A stretch of 64,000 nt of DNA, from positions 224,001-288,000 of the forward strand of contig OY969699.1 in assembly GCA_963702025.1 (NCBI GenBank), in the 5' to 3' direction. Of this stretch, positions 1,079 through 49,068 are shown piece after piece. Both the position numbers and the translations under genes were made by a program. A model generated the notes under the pieces. That model was not told the origin of the DNA. It worked only from the letters and a program-made list of their open reading frames with translations, and searched no databases. Source of the stretch: an uncultured bacterium (GTDB lineage Bacteria > Babelota > Babeliae > Babelales > Vermiphilaceae). Each line of letters opens with the position of its first letter. Within the stretch, counting starts at the first letter, position 1.

Positions 1079-1489
1079 ATGAATATGCGTAAATTCTTGC
1101 TGTTTTGTTGTCTCATGACTCAAATATCTTCAGTAAATACTATGCAACCGGATTCTGAGTTGATTTTAGAAGGGCCCCTTAGAAATGGCATTCGTTTAAG
1201 ATTAAAAGACCAAAATTATAAATTCCAAGATATTTTAAACAAAGTGAATGGAATAACTACTGTCCCTCAAACAAGAAAATTTGGCTCTTCTGTCTTGTCT
1301 TATATTTATGGCGGTATCGCAGCATGGGCAATGGGCGAAGTAAGCGCCGCAATTCACGAAACACCCGCAGAAATCTGGAACAATACTTTCTTCTTGGCAC
1401 GACCATTCATTGCAATCGGTAAAGCAGCTTCAAATATGTCACAGCGGCCAAAAGAGATTTTTAACTGGCTCACCAACAAATTGCGATAA
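1079..1489 (+). CDS. Hypothetical secreted protein (signal peptide followed by Met)
   Basis: GGAGG RBS; MRKFLLFCCLMTQISSVNT-MQP. Confidence 0.7.
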   Translation: MNMRKFLLFCCLMTQISSVNTMQPDSELILEGPLRNGIRLRLKDQNYKFQDILNKVNGITTVPQTRKFGSSVLSYIYGGIAAWAMGEVSAAIHETPAEIWNNTFFLARPFIAIGKAASNMSQRPKEIFNWLTNKLR

Positions 1490-1493
1490 ATAA

Positions 1494-2231
1494 TTACACT
1501 TCAATAAATAATCGCAGATAATCCTGTTGCGTTTCTTTAACTGTTTTTGCAATAAATAATAAAAATTCAGCATCATCAGAATGTGCTTTTTCTAAGACCT
1601 GAACGTATTGATTGCGCAATATTGGCGGAATAATAGCAATCTCATAGCCTTCTTGCAACAAAATAAGATTCATTAATAAGCGTGCCACTCGCCCATTGCC
1701 ATCAACAAACGGATGAATAAAAACAAACTCTTTATGTGCCAATGCTGCCACTTCAACCGGATTTTTTTCTTTGCGCAATCGCGCCAACATTACCATAAAT
1801 TGGTCCATCAGATCATATAATTGATCCGGTCCGGGCAACGGATATTTTGAGCCGGTGATATAGGCACGCTCAGTGCGGTAATTGCCTGCTTTTTCTTCAT
1901 CGATTCGAAAATAAAATAAATGATGCAAACGTTTGATGTCATCTTGTGTTATTTCATTCTTTTTTGCCAAATCATACAAATAACTATACGCATCACTATG
2001 TCCTATCGCTTCAAAATGCTCAATCATCCGCTTGCCGCCAATAGTGATACCATCTTCCAAAATGATTTTTGTTTCACTTTCGGTCAGCGAATTGCCCTCG
2101 ATCGCATTACTTGTATAGGTAAGCCCAATGCGATAATACTCGCGTATTTGCTTCAGCAAATGCGGGGAAAGTGGTCGATGCATATTAATTTTTTTTTGTA
2201 ATTCATCAATTAGAGAATAGATATTTTTCAT
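1494..2231 (-). CDS. Fic family protein (class II, N-terminal autoinhibitory motif)
   Basis: Canonical HPFVDGNGRVAR Fic motif; SNAIEGN matches the (S/T)xxxE(G/N) inhibitory helix. Confidence 0.92.
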   Translation of the reverse strand: MKNIYSLIDELQKKINMHRPLSPHLLKQIREYYRIGLTYTSNAIEGNSLTESETKIILEDGITIGGKRMIEHFEAIGHSDAYSYLYDLAKKNEITQDDIKRLHHLFYFRIDEEKAGNYRTERAYITGSKYPLPGPDQLYDLMDQFMVMLARLRKEKNPVEVAALAHKEFVFIHPFVDGNGRVARLLMNLILLQEGYEIAIIPPILRNQYVQVLEKAHSDDAEFLLFIAKTVKETQQDYLRLFIEV

Positions 2232-2249
2232 ATTTGAATTTCCTGAAAC

Positions 2250-3317
2250 TCAGACTAAATAAACAGTTCGTATTTTCACCACCGGCGCAGCATCTTTGCC
2301 CGATCCTTTTTCTCGTTCTAACAGAACCCAAATAATAACCGTAACTTTGCCCACTTTAGCGCTCGATAACACCGAAAAGATTTTTGGCGAAAACGTTGGA
2401 TTAAATAATTGAGAAAAATTTGCCGGAAGCGCGCTATATTCTACGCCATAAACCGGTTTAAAGATGGTGTTCCAATCAGTTTTCCAGTTACTTTGTTCTT
2501 TAGCGGTTTTTACTACTTCTTCAGAAAACAATTTTTTTTGCACACCTTTTGGCAGATACAATTGAATAATTGAATGGGAGAAAAGCCACGGATCAATCTC
2601 TTTCTTTCCCGATGAAATGGTAAAAATATCGGTTAAATAAATAGCATCTTTTTTGCCCGCAGGATCATAGAAAATAGTATTCTTAAAGACCTCAAAGCCT
2701 TTGATCGTTAATAATTCCGTAACATCGTTGAGCGGATATTTGCGCTCTTTTAAGAACTTTTCAAATTCAGTAAAAAGATCAGCATTTATTTTCCCTTTGA
2801 TCAAACCGAACAGCTCTTGGAAAAACTTTTTCATATCGCCATTTGGTTTGCCCTCACCAATAAATGCATGTTTTTCAAAATCATATAAACGGTTAATATT
2901 AATTTTTCCCTCTTCACTGCCCAACGTAATCGCCATGGTAGCATCGATTCCTTCAACACCGCGTAAAAGCTTTAATGATTGTTGTTGATTTAATATCGGA
3001 ACTATTTCTTTGAGCACCGCTTTAGCATCCGAGAGTGGCGCTTCTTGCGCTTTTGCTTGCTGCGGATTCTTATTTGGTTGCGGCTGCGGCTGCTCTTGTT
3101 TAGGTTCTTTTTTTTCAGTTACCGATAACTGCGCGATTGCCAGCTGAATACCGCCGAATGCGAGTTGACGCGCCTTTTCACGATCAACCATAGTTTGTGA
3201 AACACGCGCGAAAATAAATCCTCTGTTAAAAACATAGGTGCTCAAAAACATTGCAAGCATGATCAAGCCAAGGGTGAGCGTGAGAATGTAACCGGGTTGA
3301 TTGTTGGTGTGTTTCAT
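2250..3317 (-). CDS. gspK: Type II secretion minor pseudopilin GspK-like
   Basis: Prepilin-like G/YILTL lacking Glu5; EEGKININ motif; last gene of the F-G-H-I-J-K order. Confidence 0.8.
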   Translation of the reverse strand: MKHTNNQPGYILTLTLGLIMLAMFLSTYVFNRGFIFARVSQTMVDREKARQLAFGGIQLAIAQLSVTEKKEPKQEQPQPQPNKNPQQAKAQEAPLSDAKAVLKEIVPILNQQQSLKLLRGVEGIDATMAITLGSEEGKININRLYDFEKHAFIGEGKPNGDMKKFFQELFGLIKGKINADLFTEFEKFLKERKYPLNDVTELLTIKGFEVFKNTIFYDPAGKKDAIYLTDIFTISSGKKEIDPWLFSHSIIQLYLPKGVQKKLFSEEVVKTAKEQSNWKTDWNTIFKPVYGVEYSALPANFSQLFNPTFSPKIFSVLSSAKVGKVTVIIWVLLEREKGSGKDAAPVVKIRTVYLV

Positions 3318-4369
3318 GGGGTAGATCCTCTTGGTGCAGGAGTTGTTGGCTGCTTGCCTGCCGCAGATCCGGCCTGTTGGCCCGGTTTACCATTTTGATC
3401 AACTGCCCCCACTAATTCTTTAAGCTTTCCAAGCAAACGCGAACCTTCTTTTCGTTCCGCTTCAATTTCTGAACGTATTGGTATCTTCAAAGAAAAGCTC
3501 CTACTTTTTTTCTTGGGCAAATCCCACAAAGCAACAGTAAATTCTACCAGTTGTGGCACCACCGGTAACCTCTGCTTGCTTTCATCTTCTCCCTCTTTTT
3601 TTTCCAACCATTCAGCAACTTTTTTTATTTCTTTCTTTTTGCTCTCTTTTTTTTGCGCCGCCTCTTTTTTTGCCGCCTCCGGCTGAGTAGCTCCTGGCTT
3701 AGGCGTTTCTTGTTCTTTTTGTTCTTGTAACACCGCAGTATATTCAACCGATAATGATTTTATACCGCGCACCATTTCATATTCTTTAGCGGTTTCTTTG
3801 TTGTCGAGCGCATTAATATCAAGCTTAGCCGATTCTTGCCGGATAAGCGCATAGGATTTAGCAGGATTTTTTGGTGTCGGTTTTTCTTCTTTTAAAAGAT
3901 ACCGCACGCGAATAACACGCGGTTTTGCTGAACCTGATTTGGCGCCCCAATATATTTGCAAAGGATTGGTGGTAATAAATGTTAGTTGGTCGAGCATGCC
4001 CCCTTTATTGGTGCTATAAAAAAGTTTTTCTAAGGGCCTTTGCTGTTTTGCTTGCGCGCCCGGTGCTGCATTTTCTTCTGCTTGTTCTTCTTCCGCTTCT
4101 TTCTTTTGGTCCGGTTTTGGGGTAGCAGCATTTTTTTGTTGTGGTTTTTTTTGACGGAGATACCACTCATTGGGGGCGGTAACTCCCGAAAGATCCCGCT
4201 CAAACTGCGCATTGAGCAGCGCGGCATTCTCATAAATTGCCGTTGTTGAATCAATCACCGGCACAAAGCGATTAATTTGATAGATAGCACTCATTAAAAG
4301 ACCACTTAAAATTGAAGCAATTAATGAGGCAATTAATAATTCAACGAGACTAAACCCCGGATTTTTCAC
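3314..4369 (-). CDS. gspJ: Type II secretion minor pseudopilin GspJ-like, with K/E/Q/P-rich insertions
   Basis: Class III signal G/FSLVELLIA; FERDL motif; operon position. Confidence 0.75.
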   Translation of the reverse strand: MKNPGFSLVELLIASLIASILSGLLMSAIYQINRFVPVIDSTTAIYENAALLNAQFERDLSGVTAPNEWYLRQKKPQQKNAATPKPDQKKEAEEEQAEENAAPGAQAKQQRPLEKLFYSTNKGGMLDQLTFITTNPLQIYWGAKSGSAKPRVIRVRYLLKEEKPTPKNPAKSYALIRQESAKLDINALDNKETAKEYEMVRGIKSLSVEYTAVLQEQKEQETPKPGATQPEAAKKEAAQKKESKKKEIKKVAEWLEKKEGEDESKQRLPVVPQLVEFTVALWDLPKKKSRSFSLKIPIRSEIEAERKEGSRLLGKLKELVGAVDQNGKPGQQAGSAAGKQPTTPAPRGSTP

Positions 4370-4901
4370 TGCTGGACTCCGGCTTATAGATAAAACTTAC
4401 CAAACGTTCTTGTTTTTTGCTCTGCGTTTGCGGCGCCTGAATTGTTACGCTTTGGATCAGCACATTTTTAAATTTTTTAAGCGCAGAAGAATCAGGTATT
4501 TTTTTAAGTTCATATTTTAAGGTGATCCCTTCATCACTCTTTTTACTTGTTGTAAATGTTTGCGCTTCGGGTGCAAGATTAAATTCCGTATCAATTAAAA
4601 ATTTTTTTGCCGCCAGAATTCCCCCAAAAGCTCTGCGCGCACGCGAAACACTGCGAGAAATAGCCGATTGCCCGTTAAAAATGGGCGTGAGCACCAAGCC
4701 GATGATGGCCATTGCCAGGAGCACTTCGATTAAGGTGAAACCATTGCGTGACCCCGCTCGCCCTGAGTGCGAGTGCAACGAGCGTATCGAAGGGTCATAA
4801 TTCGGCATAGTTCGATACGCCGCTTTGAGGTGGATTTTGTCCTGAGCGCCGTCGAAGGGCACTACGAGCGGAGATGTTACCTTATTTTTGAAAACTATCA
4901 T
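4350..4901 (-). CDS. gspI: Type II secretion minor pseudopilin GspI-like with palindromic insertion in leader
   Basis: G/FTLIEVLLA prepilin motif; likely start ATG at 4901 overlapping the gspH 3' end. Confidence 0.75.
   Translation of the reverse strand: MIVFKNKVTSPLVVPFDGAQDKIHLKAAYRTMPNYDPSIRSLHSHSGRAGSRNGFTLIEVLLAMAIIGLVLTPIFNGQSAISRSVSRARRAFGGILAAKKFLIDTEFNLAPEAQTFTTSKKSDEGITLKYELKKIPDSSALKKFKNVLIQSVTIQAPQTQSKKQERLVSFIYKPESSSEKSGV
4754..4871. repeat. Palindromic REP/RPE-like element, in-frame in gspI
   Basis: Terminal IR CCGCTCG/CGAGCGG; inner perfect IR GCGTATCGAA (4782-4791)/TTCGATACGC (4811-4820); GC-rich against an AT-rich background. Confidence 0.75.
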
Positions 4902-5442
4902 ACACCGTAAACTGCGCGGTAAAAGGGTTGAGCACCAAACCAAATTGCCGTGGTTTTCCTGCCGTATTTTTTTGTTTTTTATCAATAAAATTAATAGTCA
5001 CGTTTTGCGTTAACCCATCCGGCACAATAAAAAAATAACTTGCTATAGTTTTTTCGCTTGTTGACCGTGCCTTTTCATCAAATCCTTCGATAATAAAATT
5101 TTTAATCTCTATATTTGATGGAATGGCGAGTGATGTATTAAGATATGCCCCTTTAATCGGGGCAGTTTCGGGCGGCCCGTTATCTTTGAATCGCACAACA
5201 TCACTCACCGAAACAATATTCTTTTTAAAATCAAACTCCACCTGCTGAGTTTTACGCTCAACAAGCGCGCGGTGCCACGCAAATCGCGTTAATGCATTGA
5301 GTTTCCCCAAAAATACTTGGCGCTCTCTGCGTGGCAGTAATTTACTAAAATTAGGTACAACTACCGCAGTCATTAACCCAATAATAGCAACAACAATCAG
5401 GATCTCTATTAAAGTAAATCCATTCTTATTGCTTCCAAGCAT
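4882..5442 (-). CDS. gspH: Type II secretion minor pseudopilin GspH-like
   Basis: G/FTLIEILIVVAIIG prepilin motif; follows gspG. Confidence 0.8.
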   Translation of the reverse strand: MLGSNKNGFTLIEILIVVAIIGLMTAVVVPNFSKLLPRRERQVFLGKLNALTRFAWHRALVERKTQQVEFDFKKNIVSVSDVVRFKDNGPPETAPIKGAYLNTSLAIPSNIEIKNFIIEGFDEKARSTSEKTIASYFFIVPDGLTQNVTINFIDKKQKNTAGKPRQFGLVLNPFTAQFTVYDSFQK

Positions 5443-5872
5443 CTATCCACTCAGATTTTGGTGTACCTTTACCCCGTTTGCTTCCATAGGAATAAAGCTC
5501 AAACGGATGCTCGCCGCCTTCAGTTGGCTCATAGTGGAACGGTTTATTCCAACCATCTTTTGGTACTTCTCCCTTTTTGGCAGTAATATAGGGGCCGTCC
5601 CAACTTTCAGCAATTTTCTCATCGGCAGGCTTTTTTATCAAATCAACTAAGTTATGTGGATACTCACCCGTATCATCATTATAGGCTTCGATCCGATCTC
5701 TAATAAACTTTAAGCTCAATGCGGTGCTCTTTTTACGATTCGATTCTAGAATGCCTTGCACGGAATAGGTAACTATTCCTCCCAAAATCATCACGAGCGC
5801 TGCCGCGATTAAAATTTCTACCAATGTAAAACCATTTTGTGCATGTTTTTGCTTTTCAATATAAATCATCAA
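5426..5872 (-). CDS. gspG: Type II secretion major pseudopilin GspG
   Basis: G/FTLVE; YNDDTGEYP, WDGPY, DGWNKPFHY and YSYG GspG-type motifs. Confidence 0.9.
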   Translation of the reverse strand: MMIYIEKQKHAQNGFTLVEILIAAALVMILGGIVTYSVQGILESNRKKSTALSLKFIRDRIEAYNDDTGEYPHNLVDLIKKPADEKIAESWDGPYITAKKGEVPKDGWNKPFHYEPTEGGEHPFELYSYGSKRGKGTPKSEWIDAWKQ

Positions 5873-5874
5873 TT

Positions 5875-7089
5875 TTACTCCTCGGTAAATGCAGCCTGTT
5901 GAATCATTGGCAGCATTAATGAGATAACAATAAACCCAACAATAACCGCCATTACAATCAGCAATGCCGGCCCAATTTTTGCCGATAAACTATCAGCGTA
6001 TTCTCCCAATTCCTCCTCATAGTTCCTAGCAACCGTTAACAACATCTGATCTAACTGTCCGCTTTGTTCACCGGTACTAATTAAATAAATAGCGATCGGA
6101 GGAAACAAATTTGTCTGCTTAAGATACTGTGCAATTTTACCCTGTTTAATAATTTTATCACGCGCTTCTCGCAGCGCATCGGCAAGGATGCGATTGTCTA
6201 TAATATTAACCACAATATCAAGTGATTCGGCCAGATTAACGCCACCTTCTAAAAGCATTCCCAGCGTATAACAAAACTGCACAATCGCATTGGTACGCGT
6301 AAAATACCCGATTATGGGCAATTTTAATTTGATTGTGTCAATCATACGCGCACCGGTTGGCGTTGATCGCCACCAGCGATACCCAACTATACCAAGTATC
6401 AAAAGGGTGGCAACGATCCACAGATATTTAGTAAACAATGATGATATGCCCAACAAGATTTTAGTGGTAGCCGGAAGCTCTTTACCGCTTGATGCAAAAT
6501 TTTCGGCCATCGAGGGCACTACAAAAATAAGCAAAACACTTATTACTATAACCGCAACAATTAATTGGATAATCGGCCCGGTTAATGCTGAACGAACGCG
6601 TTTTCTAATTTCTGCACGCCGCTCAAGATAGGCGGTTAACCTTTCAAGGATAACTTCTAATTTGCCGCTCGCTTCCCCTGCGCGAACAAGCTGAACGTAA
6701 ATATTATCAAATACTTTAGGATATTTTTTAAGCGCGTCAGCAAATGAAATACCCTCTTTTACTTCATCTTTAATATTTACGAGCATGGTGCGCAAGCTGC
6801 CCTCAAACTGCTCAATCAAAAGTTCAAGCGCCTGCAATAATGGCACCCCCGATTTGAGGAGCACCACAAGTTGCCGCGTGAATAAGATTTTTTCTTTTGG
6901 GGTAATCTTTGGCGAAAACAAACGCTTCCACCAGGGCATTGATGCTTCGGGTGAACTCAAAGTAACCGAAATCGGATAAATACCCTGTTTGCTCAGTTGT
7001 TCTTTGGCACTTTGCAAGGTTGGCGCGTCAATGGTGCCGGTAATTTTCTTGCCGTCCTTTGCAAATGCTTGGTACAAATACAATGCCAT
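5875..7089 (-). CDS. gspF: Type II secretion inner-membrane platform protein GspF/PilC
   Basis: Duplicated domains with AGEASGKL and TGEQSGQL motifs and TM segments; start MALYLYQA. Confidence 0.93.
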   Translation of the reverse strand: MALYLYQAFAKDGKKITGTIDAPTLQSAKEQLSKQGIYPISVTLSSPEASMPWWKRLFSPKITPKEKILFTRQLVVLLKSGVPLLQALELLIEQFEGSLRTMLVNIKDEVKEGISFADALKKYPKVFDNIYVQLVRAGEASGKLEVILERLTAYLERRAEIRKRVRSALTGPIIQLIVAVIVISVLLIFVVPSMAENFASSGKELPATTKILLGISSLFTKYLWIVATLLILGIVGYRWWRSTPTGARMIDTIKLKLPIIGYFTRTNAIVQFCYTLGMLLEGGVNLAESLDIVVNIIDNRILADALREARDKIIKQGKIAQYLKQTNLFPPIAIYLISTGEQSGQLDQMLLTVARNYEEELGEYADSLSAKIGPALLIVMAVIVGFIVISLMLPMIQQAAFTEE

Positions 7090-7189
7090 GGTAAAATATC
7101 CTTTATTAAACAGGATTTGACGCCTGAGCATAAGTGTGATTCAATGAAAAACTATAGACCTTTTATGCATCATATCTAAAAGGACAATT

Positions 7190-8158
7190 ATGAAAAACCA
7201 TTTACATTTCAGTATAATCATTGCCATTTTTCTTGCTAGCTGCACAACCCTCATCGGTACTACTAGTCATAATGCAAAAGTTGCGGATAATCAACTTCCT
7301 CATCCAACTACCCTGAGAAGCATTGATTTTACTCGATCGGTTTTTGCCGAGGGAGTGGTCCCTTTCTTTACCAACGTTTTTAATAACCCCCTGTATGCCA
7401 AAGATTTTTTACCCAATAATATCCATTTTCATCTGCTTGAGTTTCTTCATCAGGGAAATGCGTTGGGCAAAGATAGTGTCTATGTGCGATCCGTTTTACG
7501 TCTTTTTTATAACAAGCTCAAAGCATTGCCTTATGTGAATGCCTATAGTTTCGGTGAGCTTCTTTCCCAATTACCCGATGCGCTCGAACGCCATTTTGCT
7601 ATCGATACCCAACAAGTTCTTGGTTCACTTAAAAATATAATCTATGAAATCCAATACCATGCATTTATGGCTAATTTTGCAGAATTCAAAACAAAACCGG
7701 AAACATTTTTGGGCAATTTATCACAACAACTTGAAAATGCAGCAGAACTGAGAAAGCTGATAGTGCTTCTTCTTGAAACATCAATCGATCGTTTGATTTG
7801 GGTCCCTTCTGATCAATTTGAAACGTGGCAGCAAGTTAAAACCATTTCTCATCTTCTTGCCATTCTTCACGAAAGAACGATTATCGGTGATCTTGAAGAT
7901 TTAAATAGTTTGTATGTCGCACTCATTGAACGTTATTGCTATTTTCTTGATGTTGCGGGAAAACATATCGATAGCGAAACCTACCAAAAGATCCGCCTTG
8001 ATATTCAAAAAGATCAGTTGCCATTGCTCACCCTTGAAGAACAGCAGGAATATATTGAAACCAAACTGCAACGATTAAGCCGTTGCCTGTTTGAGCTTGA
8101 AAGCAAATCATTGGCCTGCGAATCAGGGATTCTTATTAAAAGTCAACCGAGAGCATAA
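7190..8158 (+). CDS. Hypothetical exported protein (possible lipoprotein)
   Basis: AAGGA RBS; IIIAIFLAS-C resembles a lipobox. Confidence 0.7.
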   Translation: MKNHLHFSIIIAIFLASCTTLIGTTSHNAKVADNQLPHPTTLRSIDFTRSVFAEGVVPFFTNVFNNPLYAKDFLPNNIHFHLLEFLHQGNALGKDSVYVRSVLRLFYNKLKALPYVNAYSFGELLSQLPDALERHFAIDTQQVLGSLKNIIYEIQYHAFMANFAEFKTKPETFLGNLSQQLENAAELRKLIVLLLETSIDRLIWVPSDQFETWQQVKTISHLLAILHERTIIGDLEDLNSLYVALIERYCYFLDVAGKHIDSETYQKIRLDIQKDQLPLLTLEEQQEYIETKLQRLSRCLFELESKSLACESGILIKSQPRA

Positions 8159-9395
8159 AACCGACGGTGGTAAAGGCAATTGATCGTTTACCGCCAAATG
8201 GTAGTCGTGCAAAAAGTGATGCTTGGGGTACGATACAGGGATCCATTTGACATGCAGAAAAATCATAACTCAGATTAAATTCAGCAGAATGCACGATCCA
8301 TTCATCAAGACTTATTGCCGTATTGGCAATAGTACTTGAATAATCACAGCTATTGAGCGCCAAATGATCTTCGCCTTTCTTTAAAAATTGATACCCAACC
8401 AAGAAAGATACTCCGGCAATATTATAGGCCTGCACAAAAAGATTAAATCGTTGCATAAGACCATAATCGGTATATGCTGGTGTTTTTGCCAAGAGTAATA
8501 GATCGGTCTGATCTATGGAAGTTTTTATGCGCCGTTCACGGGTATTGCCAAAAAGATGGAGCAACTGCACATCAAAACCGGCCTTGAAATAATCCCCCAG
8601 AGTTACGCTTAATCCACCGCCATACACAATGCCAACGGCACCATTATAGCCAAATGGGAAGGCCATAAGTTTATCAACATCTTGTTTAAGACCGGTGGGA
8701 AAAGTAAAGCCGACGCGCCCTCCAACATCCACATTTTTTAGAAATTGTCTATTTTTTTGAGGAAAATCAAACATAAATTCCAACAGTAAATTTAAATCGC
8801 CCGGACCGGTTCGCTTCCATCCATTCAAATCAAGCCCGTCACCCAACTGATCAATAACCTGCGTAAGCCTGCTGGTTAATAAATTCCTAACCCGAAAATC
8901 GGCAGGCGTTTTTAGTTGCGTTCTATCGATAAAACCAACATCGGTTAAGCGCACACGGTAAAATGGTAAAAAGGTGGTAAACCACGCATGGGGCAAGAAA
9001 TACCAACGCGCACCAATTACTGCACCTAAATCCAAATGCAACTTGCCGTCAAACATAAGAGTGCCGCGTACATCGTCATTAATAGCATGCAATTGATCGC
9101 CCAACAATGATTGAGGACTGTTGTTAGGAAATCCCTTTAACATAGCAAGAGCATCCTGAAAAGGGTTCCAGATATTAAGCACGTTCACAATATTGCTGTC
9201 ATCACCATAGCCACGCGCAGGACGGACGCCGGTCTCTGCCCATAGGGTTAACTCGTAGCACCGGTCAAGATGCACTTCGGGAATAAGCAAGGTATCATAG
9301 GGGCGCATAAGCAAATTCATGCTGAATGAAACGGCTGGAAAAGATGTAGCCACTACTAAAAAAATTTTTATTACACTAGAAAAATTCCTCGTCAT
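8136..9395 (-). CDS. Putative outer-membrane beta-barrel protein
   Basis: Signal peptide, alternating amphipathic strands, C-terminal Phe (VGFMLSVDF). Confidence 0.6.
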   Translation of the reverse strand: MTRNFSSVIKIFLVVATSFPAVSFSMNLLMRPYDTLLIPEVHLDRCYELTLWAETGVRPARGYGDDSNIVNVLNIWNPFQDALAMLKGFPNNSPQSLLGDQLHAINDDVRGTLMFDGKLHLDLGAVIGARWYFLPHAWFTTFLPFYRVRLTDVGFIDRTQLKTPADFRVRNLLTSRLTQVIDQLGDGLDLNGWKRTGPGDLNLLLEFMFDFPQKNRQFLKNVDVGGRVGFTFPTGLKQDVDKLMAFPFGYNGAVGIVYGGGLSVTLGDYFKAGFDVQLLHLFGNTRERRIKTSIDQTDLLLLAKTPAYTDYGLMQRFNLFVQAYNIAGVSFLVGYQFLKKGEDHLALNSCDYSSTIANTAISLDEWIVHSAEFNLSYDFSACQMDPCIVPQASLFARLPFGGKRSIAFTTVGFMLSVDF

Positions 9396-30796: not shown

Positions 30797-30835
30797 GAGC
30801 CCCAAAAAAGGGGTTTGCATCATCAAAAAAAATAA

Positions 30836-30863
30836 TTGACAAATATGAAATTTAATGCATAAT
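30836..30863 (+). promoter_or_regulatory. Putative promoter of the ankyrin array (TTGACA-N16-CATAAT)
   Basis: Near-consensus elements about 40 bp upstream of ATG 30905. Confidence 0.55.
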
Positions 30864-30904
30864 TAGGGTATAAATAGTTTTTTTAGTTTTAAAGGAGGTT
30901 ACCT

Positions 30905-32572: not shown

Positions 32573-32607
32573 TGGAAAATAATAATAATTTTAAAGGAGG
32601 TTTACCT

Positions 32608-34023: not shown

Positions 34024-34058
34024 TGAAATATAATAATAATTGTAAAGGAAGTTTACCT

Positions 34059-35468: not shown

Positions 35469-35490
35469 TATAAAATAATGGAGAACTCTC

Positions 35491-37615: not shown

Positions 37616-38212
37616 ATGAATTTACTTAGACTCATATTATTTTTAGTGCCCGCAGCATCTTTTATATACCCAATAGACGCAATGAAGCTTACAAACAAAA
37701 AAAAGCGCACGCGTGAAAATGCTCAATTGCGCCAGGAATTAATTTGTGATGATAATAGTTTTCCCAATAAATCTGTTAAAGATTTTTTCTCCGAATCAAA
37801 AAATGAATCCACTAGTTGGCAAGAATTAGAGCAATGGTTATATGAGGATCAACAAGGAGAATATTTTCAAAAATCTTTAGCAGCCTATAACACTACCATT
37901 GATACTCCTACAACTATGCACACCACTCCATCTGAATCACTACACCCAGAGATAGCACTACAAAATGAAAAACTTGTTGAAATTAGTAACTATTTAAGTA
38001 CATTCAACCAGCAGATAAATCAAAATAGTTCACGAATAACCAACCTTGAAAAATTGATTATTGAGGTGCAATTAAAAATGAGTAATTTTGAATCAAAACT
38101 GGCTCAATGTAACAATAACGTTGAGACATTACTCGCTGCATACAGACCAATCTCGCATTCTCGCGAGAATCGTAAGCATCTCGCCGATTATCCGCCAAAG
38201 CCTCCAAAATAA
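37616..38212 (+). CDS. Truncated array member 6 (signal, NLS-like, acidic, coiled coil; ankyrins lost)
   Basis: IDA-MKLTNKKKRTRE; QNSSRITNLEK matches QNCSRIEKLEG of member 5; out-of-frame GANPNLR remnant downstream. Confidence 0.7.
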   Translation: MNLLRLILFLVPAASFIYPIDAMKLTNKKKRTRENAQLRQELICDDNSFPNKSVKDFFSESKNESTSWQELEQWLYEDQQGEYFQKSLAAYNTTIDTPTTMHTTPSESLHPEIALQNEKLVEISNYLSTFNQQINQNSSRITNLEKLIIEVQLKMSNFESKLAQCNNNVETLLAAYRPISHSRENRKHLADYPPKPPK

Positions 38213-41629: not shown

Positions 41630-43324
41630 ATGAAAATACGTTACATTGCGATACTTGCTGCTCTGATCGGCCACTTTTTTGCCTTTGCAATGGAAAAACC
41701 AACCTCTGCAACACAAGTTAAGGAGAAATCGGCAGATCTTGTTATTCTTGCCGATTCATCTACGAAAGAAATTCCTGATGTCACTGCTGATTTTTTTAGT
41801 GATGCAATCCATGCCAATATTCCGATCATAGTAAGCAGCCATTTACCATTTCTAATTAACGAGTTTGATCCAGCATTAAAAGAAAAAAACATGAGGGAAA
41901 TTCAAAAACTCCAGGAATATATGATAAAATTTCGCATGTCAGATATAAGCCCAAAAGCAACAAAATATCAGGGGGCAAAGAAAGAATTCTCTGATACTAG
42001 TAAGTGGGCCATCTATAGCAACCCCCAAAAAGATTGGGCCGTTTTTTTGCCTCAACAATATGGCAAATCATTAGAAGAATTGGGATTGAATAGCAAAGAG
42101 TTATTATTAGTAACTCCAGATAAAATAAATACAGAATTTTCAAATACGCCAAATAATATTGATATTGAAAATTTAAAGAGAGTATTCAATGGAAACTCAG
42201 ATATAAAAAAACGAATCATACTGGCCGGACATGGAACTCAAGAAAAGCCAGATCGTCCGGCAGTAATGGCAGCATTACAAAGCAAACAATATCAAGAATT
42301 ATTAACCTTTTTAAATCGGTTTACTGATATTCTTTTTATTATTTCCTGTTATTCGGGTGGCGTAAATTTAGATACTTTTAACAATCTATTAACCGATACT
42401 TTAAAAGAAACATTCAAAATACGGGACATAAATTTTCCTATTATTGTCAGTTCATCAACTGATGCGATTACCACACAATTTAGTGAAAAAGCACTCGCAA
42501 ATTTTTTCCCACATATAAATAATTTTTTAAAGACCGGCGATAAAAAAGAATTAAAAGAAGCATTAAGCCTTTTTTATAACCAAGATATTAATAACATTCC
42601 TTCAATTCGATTTCCGGGATCTAATTCATTCTTTAGACCAATAGAATTTGATAATTTATATGAAATTATTACTGCAACCGGCCTCAAAAAGCACAATTTA
42701 CAGTACATGATGCAAAAAAAGGAAATTCCTCCTTATGAAATTAATAATAAAAGAGCAATTTTATTATATCCGGCGGTAATCACCACCCCGCTAAAAATTA
42801 TTTTTGACCCCAAGAATTCAACGATAGGAAGCTTTGATAAACCTTATCCAATTTTTATTTCACGTATCGGAGGCCCAGCGCAGCATATTCTGAGCAAAGT
42901 TGAAGTGCCAGAACTTTCATTAAAAGAAACAATTAAGATGTTTTTGGATTTGAGCAAAGATAGTAAGGCACATTTAATAAAAGAATTAGTAACTTCTGAT
43001 GGCACGTATAAGAACTTTGCTTTACTAGCTTCAAATGGTGGATTGGTTGGTACCGCGATAATGCAGAGTTTCCATCCTCAACCTTTTATGATGATGGGTG
43101 GAGGTTGGATAAACCCGGGTGATTGGGTACTGGCATACTTTGATTTTGACTCATTGGTCAGATATAAAATAACAGCACAGGAATATTTAACGTATATCCA
43201 AAAGATTTTAAGTAAATCAGTGCCAAGTGATATGGCAATTCAAAATGCAACAGGTGGCCAACAAAATAAAGAATTGCTCGATGGTGCCATAAAAGAATTT
43301 TTAAACGATATACCAATAAAATAA
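41630..43324 (+). CDS. Secreted protein with caspase-like (clan CD) His-Cys motifs
   Basis: AFA-MEK; IILAGHG and FIISCYSGG. Confidence 0.6.
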   Translation: MKIRYIAILAALIGHFFAFAMEKPTSATQVKEKSADLVILADSSTKEIPDVTADFFSDAIHANIPIIVSSHLPFLINEFDPALKEKNMREIQKLQEYMIKFRMSDISPKATKYQGAKKEFSDTSKWAIYSNPQKDWAVFLPQQYGKSLEELGLNSKELLLVTPDKINTEFSNTPNNIDIENLKRVFNGNSDIKKRIILAGHGTQEKPDRPAVMAALQSKQYQELLTFLNRFTDILFIISCYSGGVNLDTFNNLLTDTLKETFKIRDINFPIIVSSSTDAITTQFSEKALANFFPHINNFLKTGDKKELKEALSLFYNQDINNIPSIRFPGSNSFFRPIEFDNLYEIITATGLKKHNLQYMMQKKEIPPYEINNKRAILLYPAVITTPLKIIFDPKNSTIGSFDKPYPIFISRIGGPAQHILSKVEVPELSLKETIKMFLDLSKDSKAHLIKELVTSDGTYKNFALLASNGGLVGTAIMQSFHPQPFMMMGGGWINPGDWVLAYFDFDSLVRYKITAQEYLTYIQKILSKSVPSDMAIQNATGGQQNKELLDGAIKEFLNDIPIK

Positions 43325-43332
43325 GGTGTTTC

Positions 43333-44040
43333 ATGAAAATCAATTATTTAATCATCGCCATGTTAGCCTGTGGCTTTGATGCCTTTTCAATGGAATTACC
43401 CGCAAAAAAACAAAAAGTAGAAACCGCGAAAGCCACCTCAATTGCCTATTATCTCATCAATCAACCGCAGCTCATTCAGCAAAGAAGAAAAGGAAAGATC
43501 CTCGATCTTTCAAACCTTAATCTTACCAGCCTTACCGGCCTAGAATTATTACCCGATCGCACAACCATAGAAGAGCTCAACCTTTCTGATAATAATCTCA
43601 CTCGCATAGAAAATAATGCGTTTGCGGGCATGAATAATATAACAACCATCGATCTTTCGCATAACCAAATAACCACACTGGATCCGCTAGCATTTAAAGG
43701 ATTACCTAAACTAATAAAAATCGATTTAGATAACAATAAATTGAAAAGGATTGATATTGCATTTGCACATCTGCACAGCCTCGAGCATTTATACCTTGAA
43801 GAAAACGATATAGCATATATCGCCCCTAATGCGTTTCGTGATTTAAAAAATTTAAAAAAGCTGTGGCTCGGACACAATAAATTAACAACAATCGAGCCGA
43901 CTGCCTTAATAGATCGAGAAAATTCTCACGGCCTGTTACGCGCAACCATGATTAATCTTGAAGATAACCCATTGGCAGATCAAAAAGGAGAACGAGAAAA
44001 AATTAATGAATTAATGGGAGATACTCTTGTTGTTTACTGA
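43333..44040 (+). CDS. Secreted leucine-rich repeat protein with NLS-like PAKKQKV
   Basis: LxLxxNxL/I...AFxxL typical-class LRRs; AFS-MEL. Confidence 0.9.
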   Translation: MKINYLIIAMLACGFDAFSMELPAKKQKVETAKATSIAYYLINQPQLIQQRRKGKILDLSNLNLTSLTGLELLPDRTTIEELNLSDNNLTRIENNAFAGMNNITTIDLSHNQITTLDPLAFKGLPKLIKIDLDNNKLKRIDIAFAHLHSLEHLYLEENDIAYIAPNAFRDLKNLKKLWLGHNKLTTIEPTALIDRENSHGLLRATMINLEDNPLADQKGEREKINELMGDTLVVY

Positions 44041-44067
44041 ACAAACTTTTAAAGAAGGCTATTATCC

Positions 44068-44772
44068 ATGAAGATCCGTTACATTTTCATTATCGCAGCG
44101 ATCACCTGGGCTTACTGCTTCTTTGCCATGGAACTGCCTGGCAAAAAGCAAAAAAGAGAACCAACGCAGGAAGTTTCTATTACTAATTATCTTCAAAAGC
44201 AGCCACAACTTATTAACCAAAGACGAAAAGGGAATAGGCTGGATCTTTCAAAACTGAATCTTACTAGCCTGGAAGGATTACATTTCTTACCCGATTATGC
44301 CGCCATTAAGCATCTTAATCTTACCGATAATGAGCTGACAACCATAAAAAACAATGCTCTTTATGGCATGAACAGTTTAGAAACATTGGATTTACTTAAC
44401 AATAAAATAAAAACGCTCGAGCCATTAGCATTTAATGGGTTAAAAAATCTTAAAAAAATCAACTTGAACGGTAACAACATTAAAAGAATTGATATTGCAT
44501 TCGCACGGCTGCCTGAACTTGAGGAATTGTATCTTGAACTTAATAAGATAGAGTATATAGCGCCCTATGCATTTCGCGATTTAAAAAACTTAAAGAAATT
44601 ATGGCTGGGGAATAATAACTTGCAAACAATCGATGCAAGAGCGCTGAAGGGTGCGCAAGAGCAATCCTTGCCGGCACTTGAAATACTTGATTTAGAAAAC
44701 AATCCACTCAGCCAAGAGGAACAGGATAAAATTGAGAATGTGGTTTCGCCAACTATCACTCTTATATTTTAA
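44068..44772 (+). CDS. Secreted leucine-rich repeat protein, tandem paralog, NLS-like PGKKQKR
   Basis: Co-linear with 43333 (QPQLI..RRKG..LDLS; AFRDLKNLKKLWLG). Confidence 0.9.
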   Translation: MKIRYIFIIAAITWAYCFFAMELPGKKQKREPTQEVSITNYLQKQPQLINQRRKGNRLDLSKLNLTSLEGLHFLPDYAAIKHLNLTDNELTTIKNNALYGMNSLETLDLLNNKIKTLEPLAFNGLKNLKKINLNGNNIKRIDIAFARLPELEELYLELNKIEYIAPYAFRDLKNLKKLWLGNNNLQTIDARALKGAQEQSLPALEILDLENNPLSQEEQDKIENVVSPTITLIF

Positions 44773-45602
44773 AGACACCGCAATGCAATCACCGTCATTT
44801 GCCTGCCCGCATTTTCACCCTGACGGCGATGAGAAAAAAAGCGATCATCACACATGGTGCAAAAATTATAACTAGTATCAATTGCAGAGGCTGGAATACC
44901 TAACTTTTGCAATTGCAGGCTATTAAGAAGCGGAACGTCTAAATACCATTTATTATCGCGCGAGAAAAGAGCTTTATTTACAAAATCTATATTTAGGGAT
45001 TTATTTGCATGGTTCGATCCAGCCTTCGCCAACAGGCTTCGGCGGACAGGTACGCTCACCACGAACGGACTGCCGGCACCGCCATCTTGTAAGCCAATGG
45101 TTGATCTAGCCACAGCGCAAAAATCCTGTTTCACTTCATAGCAACACGGCAGAGCGCTCGGGCCAAAAAAAAGCTGTAAATCTTGGGTATGAGAATTATA
45201 CATTTCCTGCATTTTCATAATCGCCGCAGGTGCCACACCTGCAATGCTGCCTCGCCAGCCTGCATGCACGATTGCTGCTACGTGATGTTGCATATCATAG
45301 ATTGCAATCGGCAAACAGTCGGCAGCCATCACACCAATGCCAAGATTTTTTTTGGTGGTAATTAAAAAATCGCCATCAATATCAAATGCAGGAATTTGAT
45401 CGTTAACAAGAAATCCCTGCGTGCTGTGGGTTTGATTAAGAAAGCAGATATTTTTAAGAGCAAGATTATGCACTATCGGCTTAAACCGTTCATGTAAAAG
45501 AAGCGGCGCAGATGCCGGAACACAATGCGCCGCTTTGTAAATTTGATCAGTTTGGTCACCAAAATAAATGGTGAACCGTTGATTGTTATAAATTATTCCC
45601 AT
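44769..45602 (-). CDS. pgeF: Peptidoglycan editing factor PgeF/YfiH (laccase-domain)
   Basis: NQTHS, ADCLP, HAGWRG, CCYEV, CT...FFSHRR. Confidence 0.92.
   Translation of the reverse strand: MGIIYNNQRFTIYFGDQTDQIYKAAHCVPASAPLLLHERFKPIVHNLALKNICFLNQTHSTQGFLVNDQIPAFDIDGDFLITTKKNLGIGVMAADCLPIAIYDMQHHVAAIVHAGWRGSIAGVAPAAIMKMQEMYNSHTQDLQLFFGPSALPCCYEVKQDFCAVARSTIGLQDGGAGSPFVVSVPVRRSLLAKAGSNHANKSLNIDFVNKALFSRDNKWYLDVPLLNSLQLQKLGIPASAIDTSYNFCTMCDDRFFSHRRQGENAGRQMTVIALRCL
45010..45072. repeat. Nested palindromic element in-frame in pgeF
   Basis: TGGTTCGAT[CCAGCCTTCGCCAACAGGCTTCGGCGGACAGG]TACGCTCACCACGAACGGACTG. Confidence 0.7.
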
Positions 45603-46870
45603 ACCGCGAATGGGGCCGTTGGTGGCTGCGCATAATAGACCGGTTGATTTTGCGCAGGAGCTTCAACATACACGTGCACTTCCGTGGCTGGTGGCGGATT
45701 AATTGCATTGATTACCGTCTGCACACCAATTAATGCATTACGCTCTTTCTCCACTTGAATCTGATGCGCATGCAATTGATTTTGTTTTTGCAATTCCCAC
45801 ACTTGCTGTTGCATTGCGCATGCTTGTGCATGAGCAGCAGCCGCTTGCGCATGAGCAGCAGCCGCTTTACTTTTTTCCGCTTCGATGCGCTGCTTTTCTA
45901 ATTGCGCGCGCTCATAGTCGCGCAACTCTTGGCGATACGCATCTTCGGTGAGAATCATACGATAGATTGCGCGTAAGTTGGCGGCCAATTGACTTGCCGC
46001 ATTAAATCGGTTGGCATAGGCAAGAGTGAGCATTTCTAATGCGCGTTCTAATTGTCGGCAATCAGAGTCACATTTTTCAATATACCGCATATACGGATAT
46101 AAACTGCCGGTAGTGGCCGCGCCACTCATAATCGCAGAGCGGATCGCTTCGCGCACCATTGCGGGATTCTTTGCATAATTTGAGAGCGCGTGCATTTCAA
46201 CTTCATAGACATGCAGCAATCGGCTTTCCAGTTCAAAGGTGGTAAAATAAGCCTCATTTGTTTGTAAATATTCTGCCATAAAGCTTAGTTTTTCAAGAAG
46301 AAGACCAGCCTCGATAGAAAGATCTTCCATCTGCACCAAAACATGCATATATTCTTTGCGTTTGCTGCGCAAGCTTTGTAGCCTGCTATTTACTTCATCA
46401 CTTGTTGCACGCAATTGATTAATGGTATTTTGCGTCGGACGTAACAATGAACTTGCTGATTGCTTATGAATAAGTTCTAAATTATACAAAAATTGTTCAT
46501 CATTATGAAAAAGGATCTGTTTTCTTTCCGAATGATTTCCCGGGAACCCAAGCTGTTGCTCAAACATCTCTATGCAAGCATCATACCGTTGATGAACACC
46601 ATCAACGCACTTTGCCGCATCTTTAATTATTGCCTCATTTGATTTACTAAAGAGCCAATCGCAGAGTTTATACAGCCCGTATCCAATGCCACCAATAATG
46701 GCAATTCCAGCGACAGCCTTTCCGGCTTCTATGGCTACCGCATCATCTACAACGCCATATCGTGGCACATGTTTGCGAGAATAATAGGTGGGCTTCATAG
46801 AATGAAGGGGTTGCGCGATGAGAGAAAAGACGATTAAAATGGGAAGAGTTGTTTTTGAAACAAACACCAT
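45593..46870 (-). CDS. Hypothetical secreted coiled-coil protein (LHS-MKP)
   Basis: Signal peptide, TM segment, long helical region, AAAAHAQ duplication. Confidence 0.75.
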   Translation of the reverse strand: MVFVSKTTLPILIVFSLIAQPLHSMKPTYYSRKHVPRYGVVDDAVAIEAGKAVAGIAIIGGIGYGLYKLCDWLFSKSNEAIIKDAAKCVDGVHQRYDACIEMFEQQLGFPGNHSERKQILFHNDEQFLYNLELIHKQSASSLLRPTQNTINQLRATSDEVNSRLQSLRSKRKEYMHVLVQMEDLSIEAGLLLEKLSFMAEYLQTNEAYFTTFELESRLLHVYEVEMHALSNYAKNPAMVREAIRSAIMSGAATTGSLYPYMRYIEKCDSDCRQLERALEMLTLAYANRFNAASQLAANLRAIYRMILTEDAYRQELRDYERAQLEKQRIEAEKSKAAAAHAQAAAAHAQACAMQQQVWELQKQNQLHAHQIQVEKERNALIGVQTVINAINPPPATEVHVYVEAPAQNQPVYYAQPPTAPFAVWE

Positions 46871-46964
46871 AAGAAAACCTCGTAGTAATAAGATGTTTAG
46901 AATCATTTAAGAAGATATGTTGATGGTACACTAAATATAGTAAAAAGTAAAAGAGCCTACGAAT

Positions 46965-47486
46965 ATGAAGCAATTTATTCTAATAGCCAATATAATCTGC
47001 ATAACCGCCTCCGCACAACCGGAAATCGCCTTCTTTGAGTATTCACATGATTTTGAAACAGTAACAAAGCTTTGCCAACAAGAATGGCACAATCTTTTTA
47101 CCATACCTTTTAATCCTTCGATGCTTCATAGAATGTTTGTTCTGCGTAAATCCGGAGATGTTACACAGAGTGATAAGCAACTATTGATTAATGTGCTCAA
47201 GGATAACAATCAGGTAATTGGATTTGTCACCTATTTTATGAAGAATCCAAAAACGGTTCATGTGGAACTATTGGCAATAGCTAAAGCCCATCAAGGCAAA
47301 GGGTATGGCACCCAACTCATCAATCATGTTGTTCAGCAGGGGATTAAGAAAGGCGCACACAATTTACAGCTCTTTGTCTTAAACCACAATAAACGCGGCT
47401 TTGATTTTTATTATCGCCGAGGCTTTGGCACTCTTCAAACATACCCCGGATATGTGCTCTTGAGCAAAAAACTTACCGCTCATTGA
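46965..47486 (+). CDS. GNAT family N-acetyltransferase with signal-like N-terminus
   Basis: LAIAKAHQGKGYG acetyl-CoA motif; N...FYYRRGF. Confidence 0.88.
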   Translation: MKQFILIANIICITASAQPEIAFFEYSHDFETVTKLCQQEWHNLFTIPFNPSMLHRMFVLRKSGDVTQSDKQLLINVLKDNNQVIGFVTYFMKNPKTVHVELLAIAKAHQGKGYGTQLINHVVQQGIKKGAHNLQLFVLNHNKRGFDFYYRRGFGTLQTYPGYVLLSKKLTAH

Positions 47487-48018
47487 AGACTACAATATCC
47501 GCCGTTTGCTTTTTGTGGCAGATCCCAGATACACACGGCGGTGACCCCGTTGGTGCACACTTTTTGACGCAGATCCCACAACTTTAATGTTTTATCATCA
47601 GATCCGGATGCAAGTTGATTCGGATCGACCGAATTAAAGTTCACCGCATAAACATCTTGAGTGTGTCCTTGAAGGCTCGCTATTTGTTCCCCGGTTTTCG
47701 GAGCCAACACCGCAACTTTTTTACCGTCAGGAAATGTTAATTGCTGATTGTTATTTTTGGAAAGTGAACTATTCCAAAATGGGGAAATCCGGCACTTTTA
47801 AAACTTGCAACACATTTATAGGGGCTCTTTGCTTCATACATTTGAATTTCGCTGGCAGAAAAATTGGCAGCAATAATACTTTTTTCATCATCAGAGTATA
47901 AAAGGGTGGATATACTTCCTTGCACATTCGGGCCCTGATAAGGAATCGGTTTTTCCATTGCAATACTTTGTGACAACAGATAAGAAATTCCTACAAAAAG
48001 ATACCATCTATTTTTCAT
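47480..48018 (-). pseudogene. Degenerate WD40 paralog (frameshift plus internal deletion) ending CSLQ
   Basis: Two ORF pieces align with 48055-49068; frameshift near 47775 (other frame WNSSLSKNNNQQL vs WNNGLTQNSAKQL). Confidence 0.8.
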
Positions 48019-48054
48019 ACTAAGACTCCTTGCTATCATTTTAAAATCCAACAA

Positions 48055-49068
48055 TCACTGTATGATACACCAACCCTTACTTGTTGAAAGATCCCAAACA
48101 CAAACACTTGATCCATTTACCTCAGTACTTGAACCGGTTAATAAACAAGCACCATCATTGCTAAATTCTCCAGACAAAAGATACTTTGCAGGAATATAAA
48201 AAGTTTTTGTTTCATCTTCGAGCGATGCAATGGTGGTTTGCGGCCCACTGGTGCCAATCATGAGCTGTGATCCATCGGGGCTATATGCCAAGGCCATGGT
48301 ATCGGGAAGGCCTTTTGGTTTAACGGCATCTTCCCCATCGCCAATAGCTTTGCCGCGACTGGTAATTTTTTTAATAACATTACCGGTTACCGGATCACAA
48401 ATTAGAATACGTGCATCTTGCCCCAATGCAATCTGGGAACCATTTTTGTTATACGCTAAATACTCGGCCACCGGAAGAACTGCAAGCTCTTTAAGCTGAG
48501 CAACATCAAAAATCTTGCTGACTTGCGCACGATTTCCAAAGGCAATTTTTGTGCCATCCGGACTGAACTGAACCGGCGCAACCATATCCGGCGTCGTTAT
48601 ACTCCTAACTCCTTTTTGTTCACGAACATCCCAAAAGCATAACGTTTTATCATCCGAACCGGATGCCAATTGATTAGGATCTTTGGGGTTAAAACTAACC
48701 CCATCAACAGCAGCGGCATGGCCTTGCAACACCACTATTTGCTTGAGCGTCTCCAAATCCCATACAATTACATTATTATTTGATGCACTCGCTAATTGCT
48801 TTGCGCTGTTTTGAGTTAACCCGTTGTTCCAATAAAAGGGAAATGCTCCTCCGTTTTGCCCTTGCGCAACAGATTGAAATGGACTGGTTGCTTGATAAAT
48901 TTGAACTTCTTTGGTCGTAAGATTGGCAACAATAATCTTTGTTCCATCATCCGAATAAAGAACGGTTGGTATGCAACCATTCACACTCGGTCCTTTAAAG
49001 GGAATTATTTTTTCCATCGCAACTGCTACAAAAGTAAAACACAACAGAGAGAAAAATAGATAACGCAT
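48055..49068 (-). CDS. Secreted WD40 repeat protein with C-terminal CaaX (CIIQ)
   Basis: AVA-MEK; LQGH...LASGSDDKTLCFWD; VCVWDL; ends WCIIQ*. Confidence 0.9.
   Translation of the reverse strand: MRYLFFSLLCFTFVAVAMEKIIPFKGPSVNGCIPTVLYSDDGTKIIVANLTTKEVQIYQATSPFQSVAQGQNGGAFPFYWNNGLTQNSAKQLASASNNNVIVWDLETLKQIVVLQGHAAAVDGVSFNPKDPNQLASGSDDKTLCFWDVREQKGVRSITTPDMVAPVQFSPDGTKIAFGNRAQVSKIFDVAQLKELAVLPVAEYLAYNKNGSQIALGQDARILICDPVTGNVIKKITSRGKAIGDGEDAVKPKGLPDTMALAYSPDGSQLMIGTSGPQTTIASLEDETKTFYIPAKYLLSGEFSNDGACLLTGSSTEVNGSSVCVWDLSTSKGWCIIQ

Follow-up and report, generated by a model that had tools for sequence, protein, structure and literature searches.

Methionine directly after the signal peptide in a Babelales genome: a rule for apparently host-directed proteins and its possible meaning

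A stretch of 64,000 nucleotides from an uncultured bacterium of the Babelota (GenBank assembly GCA_963702025.1, contig OY969699.1), hereafter the window, encodes 21 proteins in which a Sec signal peptide appears to end directly before a methionine. Why should exported proteins with unrelated cargo begin their mature chains with the same residue? An earlier note, made from the sequence of the window, had proposed an effector address, a recognition signal for secretion, an internal start codon or a grafted signal cassette. We find that Met at the first mature position (+1) is a real, genome-wide pattern. Together with a preferred class of residues at +2, it forms a real and apparently undescribed rule that marks exported proteins with a host-directed look.

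The window corresponds to positions 224001-288000 of a single contig of 1,596,033 bases (39% GC). The genome, called G000 below to set it apart from those compared with it, belongs to the Babeliales (Dependentiae/TM6); the assembly is 95% complete and 1554 genes were called with a dicodon model. The closest relatives of the GspF protein of the window are found in Babeliales/Dependentiae (48-85% identity). Cultured Dependentiae are described as intracellular parasites of protists that have many signal-bearing ankyrin proteins and a type II secretion system (T2SS) (PMC4378268, PMC6561590, PMC4776705). The bacterium studied here is probably an intracellular inhabitant of single-celled eukaryotes.

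Methionine at +1 across the genome and in the window

All cleavage sites discussed here are predictions from our own models, applied to the whole of G000. Three detectors were used, each blind to residue +1. A hand heuristic placed Met at +1 in 220 of 786 signals, against a background of 2.0%. A matrix restricted to positions -13 to -1, trained on 267 Met-free signals and scoring Met as Leu to counter bias, found it in 251/822 signal-bearing proteins against the same background, with 0-60/822 at all other offsets from -10 to +12. A matrix version that forbids Met at -13 to -1 inflates the +1 signal, so that neither its counts nor its permutation test is used. With a matrix-free rule, Met occupied +1 in 394 of 937 genes having an n and an h region, some of the 937 being false signals; the normalised enrichment was 24.5 for Met and 1.7-6.5 for the other 19 residues. 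The feature spans the entire genome and the window is not special in this respect.

The counts that follow rest on a strict set of exported proteins, 318 with Met and 367 without, from which multi-pass membrane proteins and pilin-type leaders had been removed. In the Met proteins, the signals have the n, h and c regions and the small residues at -1 and -3 expected for Sec export and signal peptidase I cleavage, according to our own models. Their mean length is 20 and residue -1 is Ala (154), Gly (81), Ser (49), Pro (13), Cys (11) or Thr (10). Residue +2 is strongly biased as well. Glu is found in 167 cases, Gln in 37, Asp in 17 and Asn in 15, that is 236/318 or 74%, as compared with 29% in non-Met signals, and the preference persists in 155/212 proteins when one gene is kept per non-ankyrin family. 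Hydrophobic residues at +2 drop to 4.7% (25% in non-Met signals) and small residues that would allow cleavage by methionine aminopeptidase (MetAP) to 12% (39%). The mature-start consensus reads M-E-[K/L]-P, with Pro at +4 in 94/318. The preference for Met followed by Glu, Asp, Asn or Gln, which the earlier note had related to substrates of the eukaryotic acetyltransferase NatB, is thus borne out by the +2 spectrum.

Since the Met codon is always ATG, each could be a start codon giving a cytoplasmic isoform beside the exported form. Shine-Dalgarno-like motifs precede 214/318 first ATGs and 0/318 inner ATGs, as compared with 349/6952 ordinary internal Met codons (p=2e-7). GTG and TTG are not in excess at +1 either (2/24 Val and 4/29 Leu codons), and a cytoplasmic isoform of CaaX or ankyrin cargo would have no obvious use. 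This alternative of the earlier note is therefore very improbable. The bases around the inner ATG show no codon bias, so that a Kozak-like or other sequence context there was also set aside.

The Met could also be a neutral relic of gene birth, left over from the fusion of signal cassettes onto the start codons of captured or resident genes. A few apparent native starts seem to have been kept, as in a LigD-type protein (GCS-MASN), where we take the Met to be the native LigD start, and 18 pairs among 27 genes share 5' DNA while encoding unrelated cargo. However, 286 distinct 5' cassettes occur among the 318 genes, 270 of them singletons, which disfavors the single grafted cassette envisaged earlier. 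The peak at +1 is sharp and has no linker tail (6-19/822 at +5 to +12). Glu follows the Met in 167 of the 318, whereas it follows the initiator Met in 7/685 signal-peptide starts, which mostly read M-K and M-N. Position +1 is also kept better than its neighbors: in 145 paralogue pairs it is the best-kept position (0.57 versus 0.15-0.43), partly owing to the high base rate of Met. We regard the relic as improbable.

In the window, all 21 N-termini are as the earlier note had written them, on the expected strand. The matrix ranks the site before Met first in 15/21 proteins, second in 4/21 (9395, 30905, 35491 and 44068) and fourth in 2/21 (1079 and 18382). The corresponding genes are as follows, with the last residues of the signal and the first of the mature protein in brackets.

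1079..1489, + strand: signal plus Met, ORFan (VNT-MQ; Met codon 1142); weak site prediction, rank 4
8136..9395, - strand: signal plus Met (SFS-MN; Met codon 9320); envelope exception, probably a beta-barrel of the outer membrane with a final Phe
18382..18894, + strand: signal plus Met, ORFan (AGA-MQ; Met codon 18448); first codon ATC, rank 4
19662..20126, + strand: signal plus Met, ORFan (LHS-ME; Met codon 19713)
20153..20605, - strand: signal plus Met, ORFan with a basic cluster (LDA-MR; Met codon 20548)
22676..23224, + strand: signal plus Met, ORFan (LFS-ME; Met codon 22730)
25236..25970, + strand: signal plus Met, ORFan (LTS-ME; Met codon 25293)
25984..26559, + strand: signal plus Met, ORFan with basic clusters resembling nuclear localization signals (NLS) (ITA-ME; Met codon 26038)
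29984..37475, + strand: six tandem ankyrin genes, each with signal plus Met, starting at 29984, 30905, 32608, 34059, 35491 and 36477 (Met codons 30050, 30971, 32674, 34122, 35557 and 36540)
37616..38212, + strand: signal plus Met, no family above cut-off (IDA-MK; Met codon 37682)
41630..43324, + strand: signal plus Met, 564-residue ORFan (AFA-ME; Met codon 41690)
43333..44772, + strand: two leucine-rich repeat (LRR) genes, signal plus Met (AFS-ME and FFA-ME; Met codons 43390 and 44128)
45593..46870, - strand: signal plus Met, ORFan (LHS-MK; Met codon 46798)
47480..48018, - strand: broken WD40 paralogue, signal plus Met (SIA-ME; Met codon 47958)
48055..49068, - strand: WD40 protein, signal plus Met (AVA-ME; Met codon 49017), C-terminal CaaX-type box
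60094..62277, - strand: extra candidate absent from the earlier list, 727-residue ORFan (SFP-MA)

Cargo labels given earlier to the 21 proteins stood in part. Pfam, run on 20 of them (48018 was left out), identified six ankyrin, two LRR and one WD40 proteins, and the other 11 had no informative family; the caspase-like label of 41630 found no match in Pfam or in the PDB. The view of all 21 as exported effectors also needs amending, as 48018 is a broken gene and 9395 looks like an outer-membrane beta-barrel. For the latter, an Atlas look-alike cluster was found (score 0.96, PF13557 on 21% of its members), while a PDB sequence search gave 0 matches.

Several local observations can be added. Gene 18382 apparently starts with ATC, with a Shine-Dalgarno-like AGGA upstream at normal spacing; this could be a non-canonical start or a base-call error. 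The broken paralogue adjoins the WD40 gene and keeps its signal and Met-Glu intact; its frame stops at 47737, and the frameshifted downstream piece (47480-47710) ends with a CaaX-type box. In a cluster at 25236-44772, Met proteins have basic, NLS-like stretches right after the mature start; this feature is local and not general in the genome. No RNA holder is listed for 29900-37500.

Cargo with and without the methionine

Repeat-protein sets were built by local jackhmmer searches in G000, and Pfam scans covered representatives of 373 non-Met and 227 Met families, repeat proteins excluded, with cut-offs of 1e-8 and 1e-6. Among the ankyrin proteins, 100 carry Met, 18 have a signal without Met and 12 have no signal, so that Met is at +1 in 100/118 signal-bearing members. 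The corresponding numbers are 9, 0 and 1 for LRR proteins and 9, 0 and 2 for WD40 proteins. Envelope and housekeeping proteins number 48 (47 named by Pfam, plus 9395), of which 32 were judged cleavable by hand. At most 7 of these 32 have Met at +1 (5 plausible, 2 doubtful; Fisher test against ankyrins, p=4e-11). No Met was found at +1 in the 24 signal-bearing glycan enzymes. The comparison of eukaryote-like with envelope proteins that the earlier note had called for thus comes out in its favor.

The Met group is mostly unannotated and includes a deubiquitinase, SET, RING-WD40, Sel1 and NADAR proteins, protease inhibitors and GNAT acetyltransferases. The non-Met group contains BamA, secretin, S41, amidase, NagZ, NamZ, SpoIID, thioredoxin, OmpH and surface propellers. 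C-terminal CaaX boxes are found in 12/318 Met proteins, 1/367 other exported and 2/362 cytoplasmic proteins (p=9.5e-4); a plain Cys at -4 from the C-terminus is found in 17 Met and 7 other exported proteins (p=0.02). As CaaX boxes need host prenyl-transferases, they would be an independent mark of host destination. Met therefore labels an exported class with a host-directed look, as shown by its ankyrin, LRR, WD40, deubiquitinase and SET members and by the CaaX boxes, and is rare on envelope proteins.

Other class markers were less informative. A loose NLS motif is as frequent in Met proteins as in shuffles (15 vs 14.3, of 318), and a strict one is raised in Met (14 vs 5.2) and cytoplasmic proteins (16 vs 7.5) alike. 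Peroxisomal PTS1, KDEL and CC/CxC endings show no difference between Met and other classes. No F-box was found beside ankyrins among the best 25 of 44 families (136 N-terminal segments), and an Atlas search with the first 32 residues gave no usable match.

G000 has 14 GNAT genes with signal peptides or N-terminal anchors, one of them in the window (46965-47486). One may thus imagine a modification or protection on the bacterial side, in which an exported enzyme such as a GNAT would cap the Met, or in which Met-Glu-x-Pro would resist periplasmic aminopeptidases. The Q-rule of Bacteroidetes, by which a cyclized N-terminal Gln is described as stabilizing exported proteins (PMC10653852), provides a precedent. 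However, the Q-rule includes envelope proteins, which the Met rule mostly spares, and the source of extracytoplasmic acetyl-CoA would be unexplained. No dedicated enzyme was identified (glutaminyl cyclase was not searched for), and there is one LepB only, whose homologue search revealed nothing diagnostic. Such capping seems to us a poor candidate.

Two further sets of cargo were also seen in G000. Signal-bearing nucleotide-dependent enzymes include ribonucleotide reductase, a PPDK-type protein, LigD, an ATP-dependent ligase, and MutS-like and AAA ATPases (L121:1-1830, L075:1688-3637, L066:10083-11660, L087:8502-9524, L078:2742-4691 and window 56086-63951); several have Met at +1. In the region 16345-17754 of L078, the N-terminal part of two repeat-class proteins weakly matches Skp1_POZ (best E 6e-6).

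Related genomes and energy parasites

A narrow DNA pattern, made of a hydrophobic core, a small residue and Met-Glu, was run on 61 genomes of the phylum with a reversed control. It matched 65 times in G000 (reversed control 5) and 17-31 times in each of the five family f2 genomes; in many of the 61 it was near background. A broader pattern comparing Met with Asp at +1 gave 122/17 in G000, 53/13 in G001, 31/20 in G048, 28/21 in G040 and 13/8 in G047. Other Babeliales were further sampled by unselected 100-kb stretches, with a pipeline that gives 258/638 on G000. Met was at +1 of 8/26 signals in G048, 6/30 in G001, 9/40 in G040 (at least 2 of them mis-calls), 4/24 in G041, 3/18 in G018, 1/37 in G047, 1/28 in G007 and 0/9 in G010. 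A count made at loci flanking the T2SS (55/455) was inflated by pseudopilin and GspK helices and is not used.

Signal-bearing ankyrins were also read by eye. In G048, 8/9 have Met at +1; in G040, only 3/19 do and 10 start with Ala, mostly within one tandem array. In the supplement on cultured Babela massiliensis, 19 of 126 ankyrin rows were read, 14 of which have a signal, followed directly by Met in 13; its Prc, OmpH and BamA have no Met after the signal. A residue of the D/N/E/Q class follows the Met in 8/13 Babela ankyrins and 4/8 Met ankyrins of G048. The pattern thus recurs in the ankyrins of Babela and G048; it is patchy in the phylum and absent from most of the sampled G040 ankyrins. 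In the other Babeliales samples, CaaX is not tied to Met (1/86 Met versus 8/449 other proteins, pipeline). By our own reading of the sites, Met begins two of the exported CaaX proteins, and A, V, S or F the others; 8/9 have M, A, S or V there, none of which is an Arg/N-degron residue. The tandem array of G040 (L141, G040:C1:50001-70000) has mature starts varying between A-Q-E/D/K, M-Q-E and F-Q-E, and four of its members have CaaX-type ends.

Preliminary data suggest the same Met pattern in alphaproteobacterial energy parasites. ATP/ADP translocase is present in 41/301 alphaproteobacterial genomes, denominators that include the unpublished G101 and G287, on which nothing else here rests. The Met:Asp ratio exceeds 1 in 19/41 translocase genomes versus 6/34 small genomes without translocase (p=7e-4), with a noisy pattern, related genomes that are not independent and the 34 being the first in handle order. 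The narrow pattern is noisy in these GC-rich genomes, where its reversed control is unmatched, and G090 and others picked with it did not hold up (0/11 with Met in G090). In G085, M-E or M-D starts 7/31 signals from partly selected regions, and Met starts 4/20 from unselected ones; the counts are 1/2 in G220, 1/4 in G227, 1/4 in G336 and 0/2 in G149. Free-living control loci gave 0/18. Met cargo in these bacteria includes LRR, Sel1 and TPR proteins and a lipase, among others, and proteins without Met include LptA, FKBP and TolB as well as synaptobrevin-like and Ulp1-like proteins. The last two, both signal-bearing, are encoded in G085 at L182:18510-19238 and L183:6291-7622.

A proposed host-like N-terminus and its closest precedents

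We propose, with a probability of about 0.5, that this lineage-specific rule may have been selected because proteins bound for the host cytosol need a host-like N-terminus that is not a degron. Translation begins at the first ATG with an ordinary Sec signal, as the Shine-Dalgarno motifs and the n, h and c regions show, and the single LepB is predicted to cut before Met. The protein would then be secreted by the T2SS; of the four multi-component systems probed, no other was found. A destination in the host cytosol or nucleus is suggested because the cargo is eukaryote-like (ankyrin, LRR, WD40, deubiquitinase, SET) and includes CaaX boxes. There, the new N-terminus would be selected to resemble an ordinary Met-retaining eukaryotic start.

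Escape from N-degron pathways is proposed because the +2 spectrum matches host-side rules for N-termini. Typical targets of the Arg/N-degron pathway include products of signal peptidase, and UBR ligases recognize Met followed by a hydrophobic or basic residue when it is not acetylated (PMC11735805). In a eukaryote, the residues usual at +1 in bacteria (D, E, Q, N, K, L, F) would act as Arg/N-degrons. Met followed by a small residue would be clipped by MetAP and Met followed by a hydrophobic or basic one read by UBR ligases, leaving Met-E/Q/D/N as the remaining class. The spectrum fits such an escape, the basic class excepted.

Several points weigh against this proposal. Basic residues at +2 are not depleted (9% versus 7% in non-Met signals), and Ile or Val follows the Met in 4/8 Met ankyrins of G048. 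The mark is not exclusive, as a few periplasmic enzymes and the barrel candidate 9395 have it; in the family of the latter, Met occurs in about 14 of 24 relatives. Conversely, RING, HDAC, DOT1 and one Sel1 protein are eukaryote-like and lack Met, and the 18 non-Met ankyrins have mixed predicted +1 residues, several of them destabilizing. Ala, Ser, Gly and Val would also evade the Arg/N-degron pathway, so that the bias for Met is not fully explained. The rules themselves come from yeast, animals and plants, and may differ in the host of this bacterium. Finally, cleavage, delivery and stability are all predicted.

The main competitor of a host-like N-terminus is an export address. Here the reader of Met-Glu at the mature start would be the T2SS, a chaperone of the periplasm or a translocon of the vacuole membrane, and the address would sort host-bound cargo from envelope proteins. 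G000 encodes GspF, GspG, pseudopilins, two secretins and two GspE/PilB-like ATPases, and no match was found in the 95% complete assembly for VirB4, SctV/FlhA, TssC or TatC. The cargo thus has what is expected of T2SS substrates, a Sec signal in a genome with a T2SS. Part of the system lies in the window:

2250..7131, - strand: T2SS inner-membrane/pseudopilin cluster (PF00482, PF08334, PF07963), conserved in Babeliales loci
5875-7131, - strand: GspF (Pfam)
5426-5872, - strand: GspG (Pfam)
4882-5442 and 3314-4369, - strand: two further N-methyl pseudopilins (Pfam)
4350-4985 and 2250-3317, - strand: GspI-like and GspK-like, respectively, as suggested by position only

The sharp divide between host-type and envelope or glycan cargo and the extended consensus up to Pro +4 are also in line with an address, as is the finding that export in Plasmodium is decided by the first two mature residues, x-E/Q/D (10.1101/2023.07.12.548774). 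However, G040 also has GspG and two secretins, yet Met is on few of its sampled ankyrins, and Ala, Phe or Ser is found at +1 of its CaaX proteins; this speaks against an obligatory T2SS address, one of the earlier suggestions. Met is also present on the probable barrel and periplasmic enzymes. Among the alphaproteobacteria, G085, G220 and G227 have TssC and secretin and bear the motif without any GspG match, though G085 has a GspE/F-like locus. An export address is possible but less probable than a host-like N-terminus. Beside the T2SS cluster of the window (7190-12447), three unannotated exported proteins are encoded (322 residues, the 419-residue probable barrel and 1007 residues). The same neighborhood recurs in many Babeliales loci, and they are candidate accessory export parts.

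These readings bear on how protist parasites sort Sec-exported proteins between their envelope and the host. Some 320 proteins, most of them without annotation, are set apart from envelope proteins and glycan enzymes by the two-residue mark, which so offers a testable effector catalogue in a phylum without genetics. If N-degron escape is true, host quality control would shape bacterial signal peptides, and the pressure would act on Sec-exported effectors while sparing those that are injected with their original start. If the address is true, T2SS cargo would be sorted by a linear signal; we know of none found so far. As the rule is present in cultured Babela massiliensis, both could be tested by mass spectrometry.

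The proteins belong to the same class as the effectors described in Dependentiae, namely signal-peptide ankyrins and ORFans (Babela, PMC4378268; Chromulinavorax, PMC6561590; TM6 comparison, PMC4776705). Signals are reported on 79/126 Babela ankyrins and 78% of Chromulinavorax ankyrins, and no secretion system other than the T2SS is reported for Babela. The word methionine is absent from the main text of these three papers, and no +1 rule was seen there. No Met rule was found in the open-licence literature searched, though an earlier remark may exist. Legionella AnkB-type effectors (PMC5506055, PMC2916131) are likewise ankyrin or repeat proteins with a C-terminal CaaX used by host enzymes, but they are injected by a type IV system, whereas the proteins here carry Sec signals, whose removal would give a new N-terminus. 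On the host side, the likeness is with NatB and the Arg/N-degron pathway, for which Met-Asp/Asn/Glu/Gln starts and avoidance of Met-hydrophobic ones are described (PMC11735805). The residue class therefore agrees with the NatB idea of the earlier note. Acetylation itself is doubtful, since NatB acts co-translationally on the ribosome and would not be expected by default to modify imported bacterial proteins.

In the PEXEL/HT export element of Plasmodium (RxL, then x-E/Q/D; 10.1101/2023.07.12.548774), an intracellular parasite likewise has E/Q/D at the second mature position of host-exported proteins, and the first residue matters. That system is eukaryotic, with a cut by plasmepsin V after RxL, acetylation in the endoplasmic reticulum and reading by the PTEX translocon. 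In G000 the second mature residue agrees (Glu 167, Gln 37 and Asp 17 of 318), but there is no RxL: residue -1 is an ordinary A/G/S or, less often, P/C/T and -3 carries no charge, although the detection rule itself partly dictates both, and a role in export is only proposed. It is unlikely, though conceivable, that Met-Glu plays in bacteria the part of the PEXEL product. Signal peptidase would then expose a linear address, read by a T2SS or a vacuole translocon, that directs hundreds of effectors into the host and disguises them as well, and this address would have arisen independently in Babelota and in alphaproteobacterial energy parasites of protists.

The closest known system is the Q-rule of Bacteroidetes (Bochtler et al. 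2018, PMC5837995; Szczesniak et al. 2023, PMC10653852). There, about 71% of substrates, envelope proteins among them, start with Gln, which a dedicated glutaminyl cyclase cyclizes. In G000, the residue is Met; between about a third and a half of the signals have it, with a host-directed bias, a rule at +2 and no modifying enzyme found; Gln is not dominant even without Met (36/367 of the non-Met set), and envelope and glycan proteins are mostly or wholly spared. What the two share is a lineage-specific residue at +1 of signal peptidase I sites, on hundreds of unrelated proteins, with a proposed stabilizing role.

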